Origin: a virus
Lineage: Duplodnaviria; Heunggongvirae; Uroviricota; Caudoviricetes
Strand: one strand, 5' to 3'
IMG/VR virus record: IMGVR_UViG_3300028833_002727
Length of the DNA: 41,547 bases
Below, in pieces: positions 867 to 6,231 of the stretch. Position numbers and translations under genes: made by a program. Within the stretch, counting starts at the first letter, position 1; each line of letters starts with the position of its first letter. Below the pieces are notes generated by a model. The model was given only the letters and a program-made list of their open reading frames with translations. It ran no database searches and was not told where the DNA came from.

Positions 867-1025
867 ATGATTACAACTTTTTACCAAATTACAGTGGAGG
901 CTATGCCAGGGGCATATCGTCCAGAATTCGTTAAAGATTTACGTGCGATTTCTCGTGAATGTAAATATTGTACAGTAAAGGGAATTTTTAATGAAGAAGA
1001 AATAATAGTCAAAAATAATGAGTAA
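867..1025 (+). CDS. Small hypothetical protein (52 aa), first gene after the promoter; absent from the ORF track
   Basis: ATG 867 to TAA 1025 (MITTFYQITVEAMPGAYRPEFV...), overlapping the start of the next gene. Confidence 0.6.
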   Translation: MITTFYQITVEAMPGAYRPEFVKDLRAISRECKYCTVKGIFNEEEIIVKNNE

Positions 1026-2055
1026 TTTAATCAAGTGTCCCGAACCGATTACGGGAATTACAAAAAAGTGGAAAGTCTTTTTGGCTGGCCCAATACAAGG
1101 TGCACCAGATTGGCAATCCAAATTACCTGAAATTGAAAATGTGGTATATTTATCTCCGCGTAGAGAGTCATACCCAGTACCTAATTTCAATTATAATGAG
1201 CAGGTTGAGTGGGAAACGCAAGCATTGCGTTCAGCAAATATTGTTTTAGTTTGGATACCGAAAGAGGACGAGAGCATTGCAGGACGTTCCTATGCACAAA
1301 CTACGCGTTTCGAAGTGGGTGAAAATATGGCACGCGGTAAAAACATCATTCTTGGTATTGATGAATCATTCCCTGGGCGCCGCTATTTTGAATACAAAGC
1401 AAAAAAGTACGGTGTACTTGGTGACAAAGTATTTTCAACACTTGAAGAGTGTGTAGAACAGTTGAAAAAATGTGTTGAGATACGAACACAAAATCCAAGA
1501 ACCTATTTTACTTCGGATACTCATTTCTCCTCAGAGCGTGCGTTAACGTTATCTATGCGCCCGTTTAAGACAATTGAAGAAATGGACTGGACGATGATTG
1601 AGCGTTGGAATAACACGGTTATGCCATGTGATACTGTTTGGCATCTTGGCGATTTCGGTGAGAACTGGCCGTTGGGTTATCTATCTGGTAACATCAAATT
1701 CCTTAATGGAAACTATGAGCGTGAGGGTAAATCTACTATTGACAGGACTTTAGTTGAGGTTATTGGCAATGAAGCAACAATTGATCTCAATAGCAAAGTT
1801 TATTACTTATCACATGAGCCAGAGAGATGCAGACGCGTTATTAACTGGCACGAAAATAAACAAAAATTCCAGGTTGGACAATACAGGGTATTTGCTTTGT
1901 ATGGGCACATACATGGACGTCAACGAATTAAACCGTTTGGTATGGATGTAGGTGTTGATTGTAGTAATTTTACGCCCGTAAGTATGAATGAGGTAGCATT
2001 CTATAGGGATGCTGTAGAGAAAGGTTTTTACGACGAAAACGTTTGGGTGCAATAA
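1018..2055 (+). CDS. Fusion of a nucleoside 2-deoxyribosyltransferase-like (N-glycosidase fold) domain and a calcineurin-like phosphoesterase
   Basis: N-terminus VFLAGPI..DWQ..SPRR..EQVEWE..TRFEVG; C-terminus FTSDTHF, HLGDF, GNYE, HGHIHG-type motif (YGHIHG). Confidence 0.8.
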   Translation: MSNLIKCPEPITGITKKWKVFLAGPIQGAPDWQSKLPEIENVVYLSPRRESYPVPNFNYNEQVEWETQALRSANIVLVWIPKEDESIAGRSYAQTTRFEVGENMARGKNIILGIDESFPGRRYFEYKAKKYGVLGDKVFSTLEECVEQLKKCVEIRTQNPRTYFTSDTHFSSERALTLSMRPFKTIEEMDWTMIERWNNTVMPCDTVWHLGDFGENWPLGYLSGNIKFLNGNYEREGKSTIDRTLVEVIGNEATIDLNSKVYYLSHEPERCRRVINWHENKQKFQVGQYRVFALYGHIHGRQRIKPFGMDVGVDCSNFTPVSMNEVAFYRDAVEKGFYDENVWVQ

Positions 2056-2056
2056 C

Positions 2057-2932
2057 ATGGGAAAGTGGGTTAATTATAACGTAAACATATGCGATAATAT
2101 CTTCAACGATTTGGAAATACATTTCACAAAGGCTTGTGAGAATAACTGTCCATTTTGTATTGATAAGTTAAACGCTGGTATTGACGAATCCGCAAAACCT
2201 AACGTCAACGCTATTTTTACCACAATATTGGTATATAGCAATAAATTTGATGAAATAGGTATTGCTGGTGGAGAACCGTGTTTATACTTGGACGAGTTGC
2301 ATGAATTGTGTACACTGATTAAAAAGTACTTTCCGACTAAAAAACTGACACTGATTACATCAATACCCGAAATTTGTTTTACGAAAAAAGATACATTTTA
2401 CAAAGTACTTGAGTTGTGTGATTACGTTACAATTAGCCCACAGCACCATAATCAAGAAATAGCAGACAAAATACGTGGACGTAAATCTGGATTTGATAGA
2501 GAAGAGTTTTACAAAAATCTACCACACAAGGAAAAGATTAGTATTACAATCAATCTCATCAAAAACTATCTCGACACGTTGGATGACGTGAAAACATGTT
2601 TGTTGTACTACAATAAACTTGGTTTCAACAAAATTAAACTATGCGAGTTATCCCAACGCCCAACCATGTTCGTTAATCTTGAGGAAATTCTTGGGATTAA
2701 GTTGAAATCACCGTTTGCAAGTGGATGTGTGACAAAAAACTACAACACAAGTGAATGGTTACCTGAATTTAATGGTACATTGACATTGAAACGAACTTGT
2801 TTCTACAATAACTGCTTGCGCAAGGCTAATTTGTGGGATTTGTTGAAAGCAGGTACACGGTGGTTGTTTAGGAAAAAATATTTTTTCGGAGTCATCTATG
2901 GCAATGGTAATATTTACAAGTATTGGAAATAA
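2057..2932 (+). CDS. Radical SAM enzyme
   Basis: CxxxCxxC (CENNCPFC) and GGEP motifs. Confidence 0.9.
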   Translation: MGKWVNYNVNICDNIFNDLEIHFTKACENNCPFCIDKLNAGIDESAKPNVNAIFTTILVYSNKFDEIGIAGGEPCLYLDELHELCTLIKKYFPTKKLTLITSIPEICFTKKDTFYKVLELCDYVTISPQHHNQEIADKIRGRKSGFDREEFYKNLPHKEKISITINLIKNYLDTLDDVKTCLLYYNKLGFNKIKLCELSQRPTMFVNLEEILGIKLKSPFASGCVTKNYNTSEWLPEFNGTLTLKRTCFYNNCLRKANLWDLLKAGTRWLFRKKYFFGVIYGNGNIYKYWK

Positions 2933-3396
2933 TGCGTATATTTAAGAAAAATGGCGAAATTATGAATGATAGGATAACAAAAATTTCGAAAAAATTAGGT
3001 GACTACTTTGCAAAAAAGTTTAAAGATGGTGATAACACACTATTTGCTGAACTTTCTGAAACTGCAATTGATGGATTTATTGAGGAAATCAAAAAAGATA
3101 ATCCAGTTTTAGCCGCGTGGGTATCAGAATGGAAAGACAAAAACCTGAAAGAAACAAAAAAGAAAACAGAAACAACTTATATTTACTCTGGTAGTTGTGA
3201 TGATGATTTGGGTGGCGGATGTTACACTACTACAAAACGTAAAAAGAAAAAGAGTAGTGGCGGTTGCTATGGTAGCGATGATGGTGGCTGTGGAATAAGT
3301 TCAAGTAGTTATTCAGGCGGATGCGGAAGTTCGTCAAGCAGCACTTATGGTGGCTGTGGTAGTTCATCAAGCAGTAGTAGTTATGGAGGGTGTTAA
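2932..3396 (+). CDS. Protein with a Gly/Ser-rich C-terminus containing repeated GGC units; candidate radical SAM substrate
   Basis: ATG 2932 overlaps the rSAM stop (TAATG). The last ~68 aa contain 7 Cys, 6 of them in GGC, and the protein ends in GGC-stop. Confidence 0.75.
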   Translation: MRIFKKNGEIMNDRITKISKKLGDYFAKKFKDGDNTLFAELSETAIDGFIEEIKKDNPVLAAWVSEWKDKNLKETKKKTETTYIYSGSCDDDLGGGCYTTTKRKKKKSSGGCYGSDDGGCGISSSSYSGGCGSSSSSTYGGCGSSSSSSSYGGC

Positions 3397-3398
3397 TT

Positions 3399-3680
3399 AT
3401 GACGATTGAACAAAAACGCAAAATAGTAAGAACCATACTCACTGGTTACTATAATACAAAAGGGTTTTTATTTTACGCGACGTATTTGTGGCACTCCAAA
3501 TATAACTATTGCGTGTTCTATAGTCCGACAATGCATAAATATTACAAACACGTTAAGGGGTTAACGTTTATGTCGGATTATCAAGCAAGTGGAATTGGGG
3601 TATTATCATTTACCTCACGTGTAATAACTCTGACATACAAAGATTTAGGAATGTACAATTTAGAATTAAAAAAAGAATAA
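3399..3680 (+). CDS. Hypothetical protein
   Basis: ATG at 3399 just after the previous stop; fills the gap up to dnaJ. Confidence 0.6.
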
Positions 3681-3681
3681 A

Positions 3682-4836
3682 ATGGCAAACAAAAGGGATT
3701 ACTATGAAGTGTTAGGCGTTGATAAAAACGCAAATTCTGATGCTATTAAAAAGGCATATAGAAAATTAAGTCTAAAATGGCATCCTGACAAGCATGTAAA
3801 TGATTCAGAGAAAGAAAAGAAAGAGGCTGAAGAAAAATTCAAAGAAATTGCTGAAGCATATGCTGTACTCTCAGATGAAAAGAAGAAACAAGAGTATGAT
3901 ACGTATGGTTTCGGCGGCGGTAGTGCAGGTGATTGGGATTTCGGACATATGAATATGGATGACATCTTCAGTCAGTATTCTGATCTTTTTGGCGGTGGAA
4001 TGGGTGGAGGTTTTTCCGCACATGATTGGTTTGGAGGAATGGGTGGTAGTAGACAATACACACCACAAAACCGTCCAAGACAAGGTACGGATTTGAGAAT
4101 CCGACTAACCCTTACCATGTCTGAAACGCTTAGTGGCGTTAAAAAGAAAGTTAAGATTAAACGTTTTGTTAAGTGTGAGCATTGTCATGGTACTGGTAGC
4201 GAAGATGGTACATTAGACACATGTTTGAATTGTGGTGGTACTGGACAAGAAATTAAAACACAACGTACTGCTTTCGGCATATCTCAAGTAATAACTACAT
4301 GTCACGAATGTGGCGGCACTGGTAAAAATGTTCGTGTTAAATGTCACGAGTGCGGTGGCACTGGCTTAGTTGAGAAAGAGGAAATCCTTGAAATTGACAT
4401 TGTTCCAGGTGTAATGGAAGGCACAGTAATCACTATGCCTGGATATGGTAATTTCCCTAACCGTCCAACTGATATTGATGTTGCCGGTACATTGTTGGTT
4501 GTTATTGGTGAAGTTCTTAGCGATGAGTTCACTCATCGTGGAAACGACATTATCTATAACCTCACATTGGATGTACCAACGGCTGCATTGGGCGGAACGG
4601 TTGAAGTGCCTATACCTAATGGAACAAAAAGGAAAATAAACATCAAGCCTGGTACACAGCCTGGTGCAACTCTCCGTCTACGTGATGCAGGTATCCCAAA
4701 AATTGATGGTGCAGGTAATAAAGTTGGATGTGGTGATTATCTCATAGAGATAACTGTGCATATTCCGGAGAATATTACCGACGAAGAGAAAAAACTTTTT
4801 GAAAAACTGAAAAAATTAGAAGATTCCAAAAAATAA
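3682..4836 (+). CDS. dnaJ: Molecular chaperone DnaJ (type I, full length)
   Basis: J domain with HPD, G/F-rich linker, four CxxCxGxG zinc motifs and a C-terminal substrate-binding domain. Confidence 0.97.
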
Positions 4837-4860: not shown

Positions 4861-6231
4861 ATGCAAATTGAATTAACAAAATGTAAATACGGTTGTTTTG
4901 AACGTAAAAGTTTTGATTTTTTCGGTAGTCAAGATGCTACACAATTCATCGTTGAGTATCGTTTCAAACGTACAAAGTCAAAACACTATGGTTTACTTGA
5001 AACACATAAAACATATACAGGTGGCACAATGTGTACCTTAAATGGAGAAATAATGTATAATTTTGGGAAAGATTGTTTAATTACTGGTTATTGCCCAATA
5101 AAAATAACAAATGACAATATGAGTAAACTAGGTGTAACATCAATGGGTTTAAAATGCCCAATTATTAAAAAAGGTGACAATATTGCAGATATTGCTCTTG
5201 AAGTTATTAAAGACTATGTAAAAAATAACGCTTTTGTAATTGACGACAACGATGTACTGTGTATCACGGAATCAATCGTTGCGCGTGCTCAAGGTAATTA
5301 TGTTACAATTGACGATATTGTAAAGTTCTTGGAGGTAAACAATTATAAAAAGAATTTAGTGCTCTATGCGCCAATCATGTCAAGAAACCGTTTCTCAATC
5401 ATCCTGAAAGGTTTCGCACGTTTCGCTAACAATATAGCAATCGTTGTAGAAGATGACTGTGACGAACAGGGTAATCCAACTATGGGTATCAATCAGTTCA
5501 CTGGTGTAGATATTCGTAAATACTATACAGAAATCTGTGAAGCAGAGAATTGTAAATTGACTTGGGTTGATGACTTTGAATATGCTAATCTCTATCCAGA
5601 ATTAGATTACATTGATTGTAAATGTCACCCAGAAAATGAAAATCACGAACACACTGTAGATAACAAATTCTCTTATCTGTATAACATCATGGATAAGTTG
5701 ATTGTTCGTGAAGATGGTACAACTTCTGGTTGGAATGAGAATTACGGAGTTCTTGGTTCAAACAAAGCCGACGAGGAAACATTGAAGTTATTTCCGCGTG
5801 ATTGTAACGAATTATGTGAGGAAATCCAGAAAAAAGTAAAGGATTGGTACAACCATGATATTCACGTTCTCGTATATGGTGATGGATGCTTCAAGGATCC
5901 TGTAGGAGGTATTTGGGAGTTCGCCGACCCTGTAACGTGCCCAGGTTACACCAAAGGACTTGAGGGTACACCAAGCGAGTTGAAACTTAAAGCATTGGCT
6001 GATGGTAAGTTCGGCGCACTAAAAGGTGACGAGTTGAAAGAGGCTATTACCAATGAGATTAAGAATAAAGAGAAGAATTTGGTTGGCTCGATGGCAAGCC
6101 AAGGAACAACACCAAGACGCTACATTGACTTACTTGCTTCATTGGCGGATTTGACATCTGGTAGTGGTGATAAGGGTACGCCTATGGTGTATATTAAGAA
6201 TTATTTCGATAATTATGCCACAGAGAAATAA
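4861..6231 (+). CDS. Coenzyme F420-0:gamma-glutamyl ligase (CofE)-like protein; family core probably starts at 5119
   Basis: GVTSMGLKCPIIKKGD, ITESIVARAQGNY, YGDGCFKDP..IWE.ADP, DLTSGSGDKGTP match the bacterial CofE-like family as recalled. Confidence 0.8.
   Translation: MQIELTKCKYGCFERKSFDFFGSQDATQFIVEYRFKRTKSKHYGLLETHKTYTGGTMCTLNGEIMYNFGKDCLITGYCPIKITNDNMSKLGVTSMGLKCPIIKKGDNIADIALEVIKDYVKNNAFVIDDNDVLCITESIVARAQGNYVTIDDIVKFLEVNNYKKNLVLYAPIMSRNRFSIILKGFARFANNIAIVVEDDCDEQGNPTMGINQFTGVDIRKYYTEICEAENCKLTWVDDFEYANLYPELDYIDCKCHPENENHEHTVDNKFSYLYNIMDKLIVREDGTTSGWNENYGVLGSNKADEETLKLFPRDCNELCEEIQKKVKDWYNHDIHVLVYGDGCFKDPVGGIWEFADPVTCPGYTKGLEGTPSELKLKALADGKFGALKGDELKEAITNEIKNKEKNLVGSMASQGTTPRRYIDLLASLADLTSGSGDKGTPMVYIKNYFDNYATEK

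Follow-up and report, generated by a model that had tools for sequence, protein, structure and literature searches.

The phage DNA analysed here, a stretch of 41,547 nucleotides from the IMG/VR record IMGVR_UViG_3300028833_002727 that we refer to as the window, carries at positions 2,057 to 3,396 two adjoining genes, one for a radical S-adenosylmethionine (SAM) enzyme and the other for a small partner protein with a Cys-rich tail. Genes of these two kinds occur side by side, or fused to each other, at nearly all of the loci that we inspected, and their products are probably an enzyme and the substrate that it modifies. An earlier note, made from the letters of the sequence alone, had proposed such an enzyme-substrate pair, and our data support this proposal; it survives both the inspection of the neighbours of the homologous enzymes and the comparison with known radical SAM clades. 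It is also the most economical reading because the short partners are built like precursors of peptides that are made on ribosomes and then modified post-translationally (RiPPs). That the chemistry is specifically the formation of thioethers is a good deal more doubtful. The features on which the analysis rests are these.

2057..2932, plus strand: radical SAM enzyme gene, 291 amino acids (aa) (open reading frame; Pfam family PF04055, 3.2e-9; AlphaFold2 model, mean predicted local distance difference test score (pLDDT) 95.6)
2090..2092, plus strand: invariant Cys12, candidate ligand of an auxiliary cluster (invariant among 62 sequences with 23-49% identity to the window enzyme)
2135..2158, plus strand: CX3CX2C motif (C27, C31, C34; CENNCPFC) for the SAM-binding [4Fe-4S] cluster, invariant in the 62 members
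2267..2278, plus strand: GGEP motif, residues 71-74, the presumed 'GGE' element (invariant columns G71, G72, E73, P74)
2726..2728, plus strand: invariant Cys224 in a G-C pair before a beta-hairpin, candidate ligand of an auxiliary cluster (model strand 225-229)
2798..2800, plus strand: invariant Cys248 in LKRSCF after the hairpin, candidate ligand of an auxiliary cluster (model strand 241-245)
2932..3396, plus strand: partner gene, presumed substrate; 154 aa from ATG 2932 or 144 aa from ATG 2962 (open reading frame, 10 homologues)
2962..3177, plus strand: charged helical N-terminal part of the partner (MNDRITKISKKLGDYF...), presumed recognition ('leader') part (AlphaFold2)
3190..3393, plus strand: disordered Ser/Gly/Tyr-rich tail with seven Cys, of which six belong to GGC units, up to the final GGC-stop; presumed modified region (sequence, AlphaFold2)

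The loci comprise 57 near-full-length matches from IMG/VR, retrieved with an alignment of 11 sequences, 12 loci from metagenome-assembled genomes (MAGs) and three from GenBank phages. When the partner was strictly defined as a protein whose tail has at least two G-x-C units and ends no more than three residues from a G-x-C, it was found next to the enzyme at 47 of 60 loci, versus 3 of 7,274 background reading frames. After inspection, a partner was present at 70 of 73 loci: downstream within 72 nt in 63 cases, further downstream in three (L008, L016 and L080, one or two genes further on), upstream of the enzyme in two (L003 and L057, where it ends in ...SSC) and fused to it in two (L034 and L060). 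Variants outside the strict motif end in ...PGGRC (L046) or carry GCH...GCH (L047 and its relatives) or SHC...GHC (L055). The possibility raised in the earlier note, that homologues of the enzyme usually stand without a Cys-repeat neighbour, hence does not hold. A 346-aa protein of the representative library (P0020) is likewise a natural fusion, in which a radical SAM enzyme is joined to a tail ending in ...HDCHSGRGSRTGHC. The pairing persists down to 23-28% identity between the enzymes, with that of a 635-kb phage (L003) standing at 28%. In the megaphages Lak-B1 and Lak-C1, read with TAG as Gln, the enzyme is 44-45% identical to that of the window, and directly 3' of it are genes for proteins of 153-166 aa ending in ...YSSGGCGNTYGSPYHHWSGGC and ...YSGGCGNTYSGFSRSGGC. 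A tblastn search with the window partner against GenBank phages gave no match, since the Lak partners are too divergent and low in complexity; these were located by position instead. Two contigs from Clostridia MAGs (L088 and L089) carry a third style of partner, 84-85 aa in length, with four N/G-H-C-G units and Pro-rich linkers (...NHCG...GGHCG...NHCG...RGHC); no partner is visible beside their sister enzymes (L086 and L087).

Functional coupling of enzyme and partner is very likely, since their adjacency is kept at 23-50% enzyme identity in unrelated contexts, outlasts a flip of the gene order, is accompanied by three independent fusions and goes together with co-diversification of the two proteins. 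The opposite explanation, in which the adjacency is inherited synteny and the partner is an independent Cys-rich metal-binding or structural protein, is disfavoured and the least probable of those weighed here: while many of the loci come from related phages, and a gp25 baseplate gene follows the partner in L004-L015, the pair is retained in phages of 25-550 kb whose other neighbouring genes are unrelated, survives the reversed order of L003 and L057, occurs in fused form, and carries a tail motif that is rare among the background frames given above.

The partners are of two types. Those of the GGC type are proteins that measure 84-170 aa and consist of a helical N-terminal part and a tail that is rich in G/S/Y/D and bears G-G/R/S-C repeats; they go with the enzyme clade of the window, to which the Lak megaphages also belong. 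Those of the HC (or GHC) type are leader-core peptides of 25-62 aa that typically follow the consensus M-(Y/F/W)-T-K-(L/I)-L-R-K-(I/V)-V ... G-H-C-(4-15 G/S/D-rich)-G-H-C-(Y/S/G). In the 21 unique GGC-type tails (88 Cys), the residue at position -2 to the Cys is Gly in 65% and that at -1 is Gly in 69% and otherwise Arg or Ser, while +1 is Gly in 68% or the stop in 24% (92% together); every one of these tails (21/21) ends in Cys. The 33 unique HC-type tails (68 Cys) have Gly at -2 in 91% and His at -1 in 96%, 28 of the 33 contain exactly two Cys, and after the last of them come 0-3 residues, in most cases one. The Cys residues of partner tails are mostly spaced 7-13 residues apart. The two types also look alike by eye at their beginnings, where the I-T-K-I-S-K-K-L opening of the window partner and the ...ITKYVGDYIA of the Lak proteins resemble the T-K-h-h-R/K-K-h of the short peptides. 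A quick maximum-likelihood tree of 64 enzymes contains one clade (SH-aLRT 100) whose 20 members are all paired with the GGC type, and the other well-placed clades go with the HC type; none of 500 shuffles of the labels was as clustered. The placement of L003, L057 and L060 on this tree is unsafe because of their very long branches.

The terminal position of the Cys bears on another explanation, which we regard as quite unlikely, namely that the partner is a scaffold or carrier on whose C-terminal Cys, at the end of a flexible Gly-rich arm, a small molecule (for example a cofactor, a metallophore or an antimetabolite) is built or carried, tailored by the radical SAM enzyme and later released. 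The precursors of mycofactocin and PQQ and the C-terminal-Cys arm of HypE provide analogies. The Cys at or close to the very end of the tails of both types would suit such a role, as would the Tyr and other aromatic residues that often precede the units, the His2Cys2 metal site that a GHC...GHC peptide offers, and the TonB-dependent receptor-like gene linked to the pair at nine loci. However, if the C-terminus were all that counted, there would be no reason to expect internal repeats with up to six or seven Cys, and no conserved peptidase that might release a product was found at the loci.

Our data on the partner of the window agree with the description given in the earlier note of a charged helical N-terminus followed by a core at 3190-3393 with seven Cys, six of them in GGC units, both in the sequence and in the AlphaFold2 model. 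This model places helices at residues 4-82 with modest confidence (block-mean pLDDT 47-75) and leaves residues 83-154 unstructured (pLDDT below 45). The tail runs SGSC...GGGC...GGC...GGCGISSSSYSGGCGSSSSSTYGGCGSSSSSSSYGGC-stop, and its last three GGC units are written with the codons GGC GGA TGC, GGT GGC TGT and GGA GGG TGT. From these synonymous codons the note had argued for selection at the protein level; the argument holds, because Tandem Repeats Finder reported no DNA-level repeat between 2900 and 3450 at scores down to 30. Recent DNA slippage can thus be discarded as the origin of the repeat, which is maintained at the level of the protein. In 10 homologues of the partner (63-86% identical to the window protein where aligned), the N-terminal ~65 aa are near-invariant and the tail has anywhere from 1 to 6 GGC units; every protein ends in GGC. 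This free variation in unit number among close relatives suggests that each unit is an independent target. The partner has no Pfam match of any kind. A search of 184 kb of the genome gave no other open reading frame with a GGC tail and thus no second substrate of this kind.

The stop codon of the radical SAM gene (TAA, 2930-2932) overlaps an ATG (2932-2934), forming the TAATG to which the earlier note had drawn attention. Judged from the alignment of homologues, nine of ten of which begin with MND, MMN or MDD at the corresponding Met, the true start of the partner may be ATG 2962, 29 nt past the radical SAM stop, and not the overlapping ATG 2932; with either start codon the linkage of the two genes is tight.

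That the upstream gene encodes a member of the radical SAM superfamily is clear from its CX3CX2C and GGEP motifs, its barrel core and its score against the PF04055 Radical_SAM model (37.6 bits at a cut-off of 29.5). The AlphaFold2 model is a confident radical SAM barrel with an alternating strand/helix core. When 62 family members with 23-49% identity to the window enzyme were aligned, the invariant columns were C12, C27, C31, C34, G71-G72-E73-P74, P104, E197, C224 and C248. We take the GGEP motif as the SAM-binding 'GGE' element of radical SAM enzymes. The C-terminal domain keeps the pattern G-C224 ... beta-hairpin ... L-K-R-S-C248-F and has C224 and C248 as its only invariant Cys residues; among 20 members, not one showed a match of the C-terminal ~100 residues to SPASM or consistently to any other Pfam family, even at E<=10. 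No extra Pfam domain that could serve as a RiPP recognition element (RRE) was seen in the window enzyme, whose core begins with a strand at residue 18, and the 17 residues in front of it leave no room for one. The earlier characterization of a short, 291-aa enzyme that has neither SPASM nor RRE was therefore correct. The three extra invariant Cys residues C12, C224 and C248 suggest an auxiliary iron-sulfur cluster, of which they are most likely the ligands, with one iron left open. MoaA binds its substrate at the free iron of a second iron-sulfur cluster, and in CteB the open iron of the auxiliary cluster binds a Cys of the substrate.

From these features a course of events can be proposed. 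The CX3CX2C [4Fe-4S] cluster and SAM would generate a 5'-deoxyadenosyl radical; the enzyme would recognize the helical N-terminal part of the partner, for which we infer a leader role, and modify the G-x-C units that recur along the disordered C-terminal tail of this partner, each of them probably being an independent site. The open iron of the C12/C224/C248 cluster could bind the thiolate of a substrate Cys, and an oxidative C-S (thioether) bond might then join the sulfur of the Cys to a carbon close by, such as the C-alpha of the conserved Gly at -2. Thioether formation at or near Gly(-2) is our leading guess because a second cluster with an open iron would suit a substrate that bears a thiolate. 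When the enzyme was co-folded with its partner, two 4Fe-4S clusters and SAM, the prediction received a score of 0.01, with a pLDDT of 38 for the partner, values that speak neither for nor against binding.

The same Gly can be accommodated by a very unlikely variant in which the enzyme is an activase of the glycyl-radical type, the radical sits on the backbone of the conserved Gly of GxC, and the partner is a radical-bearing protein that is not cross-linked. After Cys, no residue is more conserved than Gly(-2), and there are weak matches to the NrdG, PflA and YjjW activases and to PFL-AE structures. The activase scores are far below their cut-offs, though, the tail is disordered whereas stable glycyl radicals need a buried fold, and known activases have no extra triads of invariant Cys. 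We rejected the glycyl-radical activases PflA, NrdG and YjjW as the family of the enzyme at 22-27 bits against cut-offs of 131-250; the neighbour has a disordered Cys tail and, being without any Pfam match, no detected glycyl-radical domain.

Several points weigh against an enzyme-substrate pair with thioether chemistry. The reaction type itself is a guess. To our knowledge, every characterized thioether-forming radical SAM enzyme has SPASM or twitch motifs, which this family lacks. At three loci (L053, L086 and L087) no partner lies within 3 kb of the enzyme. No conserved protease, exporter or immunity gene was found beside the pair among the loci examined, so that it does not form a typical RiPP antibiotic cluster; given that no conserved protease or exporter was seen, its site of action may be inside the infected cell. 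For the core of the enzyme, the closest solved relatives are viperin, pVip and fungal viperin-like enzymes, which are nucleotide enzymes (profile 4.6e-16; template modelling (TM) scores 0.5-0.6). Furthermore, the persistent linkage to NAD-salvage genes in the clade of the window could point to a nucleotide-related role.

The flanks of the GGC-type clade contain PnuC at 18 loci, a NadR-like gene at 14 and a TonB-receptor-like gene at nine, the latter two names being given from sequence motifs and not from Pfam. Loci listed with NAD-salvage neighbours are the window, L003, L004-L016, L054, L057 and L080, and they thus include the deep-branching L003 (74-3590; the 635-kb phage) and L057, in which the partner lies upstream of the enzyme. 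The GHC-type loci, which form the majority, are without NAD genes. The linkage may reflect either a shared function or merely a conserved gene island. It is central to a rather unlikely alternative in which the enzyme acts on a small molecule, for instance a nucleotide, in the manner of viperin or MoaA, perhaps tied to NAD salvage, and the peptide with the Cys tail is an obligate accessory subunit that might complete the three-Cys cluster with a fourth ligand or have a regulatory or chaperone role. The best matches to solved structures and to the defence library are indeed viperin-like (4.6e-16 by profile; Foldseek ranks 1-9; pVip at 1.1e-10); PnuC, NadR-like and TonB-receptor-like genes stand beside the GGC-type pair even in L003 and L057 with their altered gene order; and the gene directly upstream of the enzyme encodes a fusion of a nucleoside-deoxyribosyltransferase (NDT)-like and a phosphoesterase part in the window and a phosphoribosyltransferase (PRTase)-domain protein in Lak. 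Yet the viperin matches end at about residue 190 and reach only 38 versus 180 and 19 versus 450 bits, most loci, being of the GHC type, lack NAD genes altogether, and leader peptides of 25-35 aa with two motifs, together with the free number of repeats, suit a substrate better than a subunit.

In a more specific form, which we consider quite possible while stopping just short of calling it probable, the family is a phage-exclusive class of radical SAM maturases that has neither SPASM nor RRE, carries a three-Cys auxiliary cluster and modifies G-x-C units, and whose product is intracellular and not a secreted antibiotic. As substrates it would take short leader-core peptides with GHC...GHC in many phages and, in Lak-like megaphages, the disordered tails of proteins of 84-170 aa, and its product would be, for example, a metal- or cofactor-bearing or an anti-defence factor, possibly coupled to the phage NAD-salvage operon.

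The enzyme family is discrete and, viral by every measure available, is found only on phage or phage-like MAG contigs. A HMMER search of 1.84 billion representatives gave 262 clusters (at 50% identity) with E<=1e-3 and 114 with E<=1e-10, mostly of 280-320 aa and aligned end to end; the nearest ESM-Atlas clusters of the enzyme are 100% Viruses. In GenBank phages the enzyme matched 15 Lak megaphage records and three huge-phage records. Among prokaryote genomes, one for each of 185,579 species, there were 12 near-full-length copies and one short fragment, all on MAG contigs, one of which is a 410-kb contig listed as viral by IMG/VR. Neither the enzyme nor the partner has a specific model in Pfam, NCBIfam, PHROGs or PADLOC. 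No family member reaches any NCBIfam cut-off, and the best matches there (HxsC, prokaryotic viperin, TatD-linked radical SAM, TIGR04100, NrdG, PflA and MoaA) reflect the common core only. Foldseek against the PDB returned viperin-like enzymes at ranks 1-9 and also MoaA, SuiB, CteB, BlsE, DesII, NifB, PFL-AE and anSME, with TM scores of 0.4-0.6; the PDB sequence profile search gave viperin-like enzymes first (4.6e-16, residues 18-190), then SuiB, YydG and MoaA. The nearest solved folds hence include the peptide maturases SuiB, CteB and YydG beside viperin and MoaA. The earlier note had asked whether the enzyme might fall into a known small-molecule clade such as QueE, NrdG or PflA; it falls into none of them, as the NCBIfam scores are far below the cut-offs and the PDB matches are limited to the core. 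In four multi-domain proteins with 2-4 radical SAM domains, P0059 (695 aa), P0146 (1318 aa), P0153 (1028 aa) and P0154 (621 aa), one such domain is related to the family of the window enzyme; in P0059 it is the C-terminal half.

Around the pair, the genes on the plus strand of the window are densely packed, with intergenic gaps of 1-3 nt or overlaps according to the list of open reading frames, and all long open reading frames of the window are on the same strand. The 184 kb of the source genome that were analysed have a GC content of 34%, and the cluster to which the partner itself belongs comes from a contig of 317,841 bp. Other genes at the locus are as follows.

24-626, window: PnuC gene (Pfam match)
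1018-2055, plus strand: NDT-like/phosphoesterase fusion, directly 5' of the radical SAM gene (Pfam)
3399-3680, plus strand: 93-aa protein that has no family match, 3' of the partner after a 2-nt gap
3682-4836, plus strand: full-length phage DnaJ with J domain, CXXCXGXG zinc finger and C-terminal domain, after a 1-nt gap behind the 93-aa gene

The genes for the 93-aa protein and DnaJ are probably part of the same operon as the radical SAM/partner pair. A scan for sigma-70 promoters and terminators gave 11 promoter-like sites versus 15.9 expected, and megablast of 6 kb against GenBank phages found no match. Behind DnaJ, a 456-aa protein (4861-6231) matches the Pfam family of F420-0:gamma-glutamyl ligase (CofE) at 6e-45; it is an unusual phage gene, far under the NCBIfam equivalog cut-offs, and its match spans residues 96-447 against a profile of 218 positions, which implies long insertions.

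The position upstream of the enzyme differs between loci. In contrast to the NDT-like/phosphoesterase fusion of the window, Lak-B1 (L001, 3072-3998) has there a 308-aa PRTase-domain protein just below the Pfam cut-off. In a 410-kb phage contig (L020, 2254-2970; also L090), a gene for a protein like NADPH-dependent FMN reductase or flavodoxin (PF03358, 2.8e-18) stands directly upstream of the radical SAM gene, for which it is plausibly a dedicated electron donor. On the other side, a second and larger radical SAM gene (414 aa, PF04055 2.2e-23) directly follows the GHC peptide of L024 (3987-5231). In L004 (4311-4700) and L005-L015 the GGC-tail gene is directly followed by a gp25 baseplate-wedge gene and a gene for a conserved 670-aa protein, so that the pair borders a virion module in L004-L015.

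Among the main sources of new chemistry are radical SAM enzymes acting on ribosomal peptides, nearly all characterized members of which are bacterial and depend on SPASM/twitch and RRE domains. For enzymologists, the pair offers a minimal and easily expressed two-gene system whose natural variants include 25-aa peptides, 150-aa proteins and fusions; for phage biologists, it is a conserved function that awaits explanation in phages ranking among the largest known, such as the Lak megaphages from the guts of humans and animals. The NAD-salvage linkage in one clade provides a testable lead to its role. We did not find a published description of the family in the full-text literature searched, a collection that misses many subscription papers, and the papers on Lak and huge phages in it make no mention of radical SAM.

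Compared with known systems, membership of the enzyme among viperins, PflA/NrdG, QueE, MoaA, HxsC, TIGR04100 or the CXXX-repeat maturases can be dismissed, as all scores are far under the respective cut-offs. QueE is absent from the NCBIfam matches, and a PDB chain of it (5tgs) matched only at 2.5e-4 over residues 17-95. The kinship with viperin, of which pVip is the best PADLOC match, is confined to residues ~18-190, with 37.7 bits against 180 for NF038283 and 19 against 450 for TIGR04278. The C-terminal domain of viperin binds the nucleotide, whereas that of the window family is unrelated and carries invariant Cys, and viperins have no peptide partner. Among small radical SAM enzymes of ~200-290 aa, HxsC (TIGR03977) and TIGR04100 ('rSAM_pair_X') are defined by curators through the repeat-motif peptides with which they pair. 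The window enzyme has its top NCBIfam match with HxsC (1.9e-10), which scores 40.1 of the 267.9 bits required; TIGR04100 scores 27.2-35 of 262. The cognate peptides of HxsC carry His-Xaa-Ser repeats and not G-x-C units, and both systems are uncharacterized and cellular, not viral. The CXXX-repeat system (enzyme TIGR04115, target TIGR04114/PF27846) has a Cys at every fourth residue of its target, while the G-x-C units of the window family are mostly 7-13 residues apart, and its models match neither the enzyme nor the partners. The window pair stands among NAD-salvage and early-type genes.

The closest parallel in layout is with the maturases of sactipeptides and ranthipeptides (CteB-SCIFF, AlbA, PapB-freyrasin, StsB), in which a radical SAM gene likewise stands beside a leader-core precursor with repeated Cys motifs; the structures of CteB and SuiB are among the Foldseek matches to the core of the window enzyme, and the adjacent Cys-bearing precursor of SPASM/twitch maturases has its counterpart at 70 of our 73 loci. 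Those maturases are larger (~330-470 aa versus ~290 aa). The SPASM/twitch type, to which the streptide maturases also belong, possesses a C-terminal SPASM domain with 7-8 Cys (CX2CX5CX3C) or a twitch domain for auxiliary clusters, where the window family has two invariant C-terminal Cys and no SPASM match in any of 20 members, and bears an N-terminal RRE that this family lacks; matches to the models of PapB and StsB amount to 16-19 bits, at cut-offs of 340-625. Set beside the sactipeptide and ranthipeptide systems, the family described here is restricted to phages, has a new G-x-C motif and, in the window, a substrate that would be a protein of 144-154 aa. The pair, a radical SAM enzyme with a ribosomal peptide substrate, would thus belong to a known kind of system, and there is a real chance that its chemistry is new.

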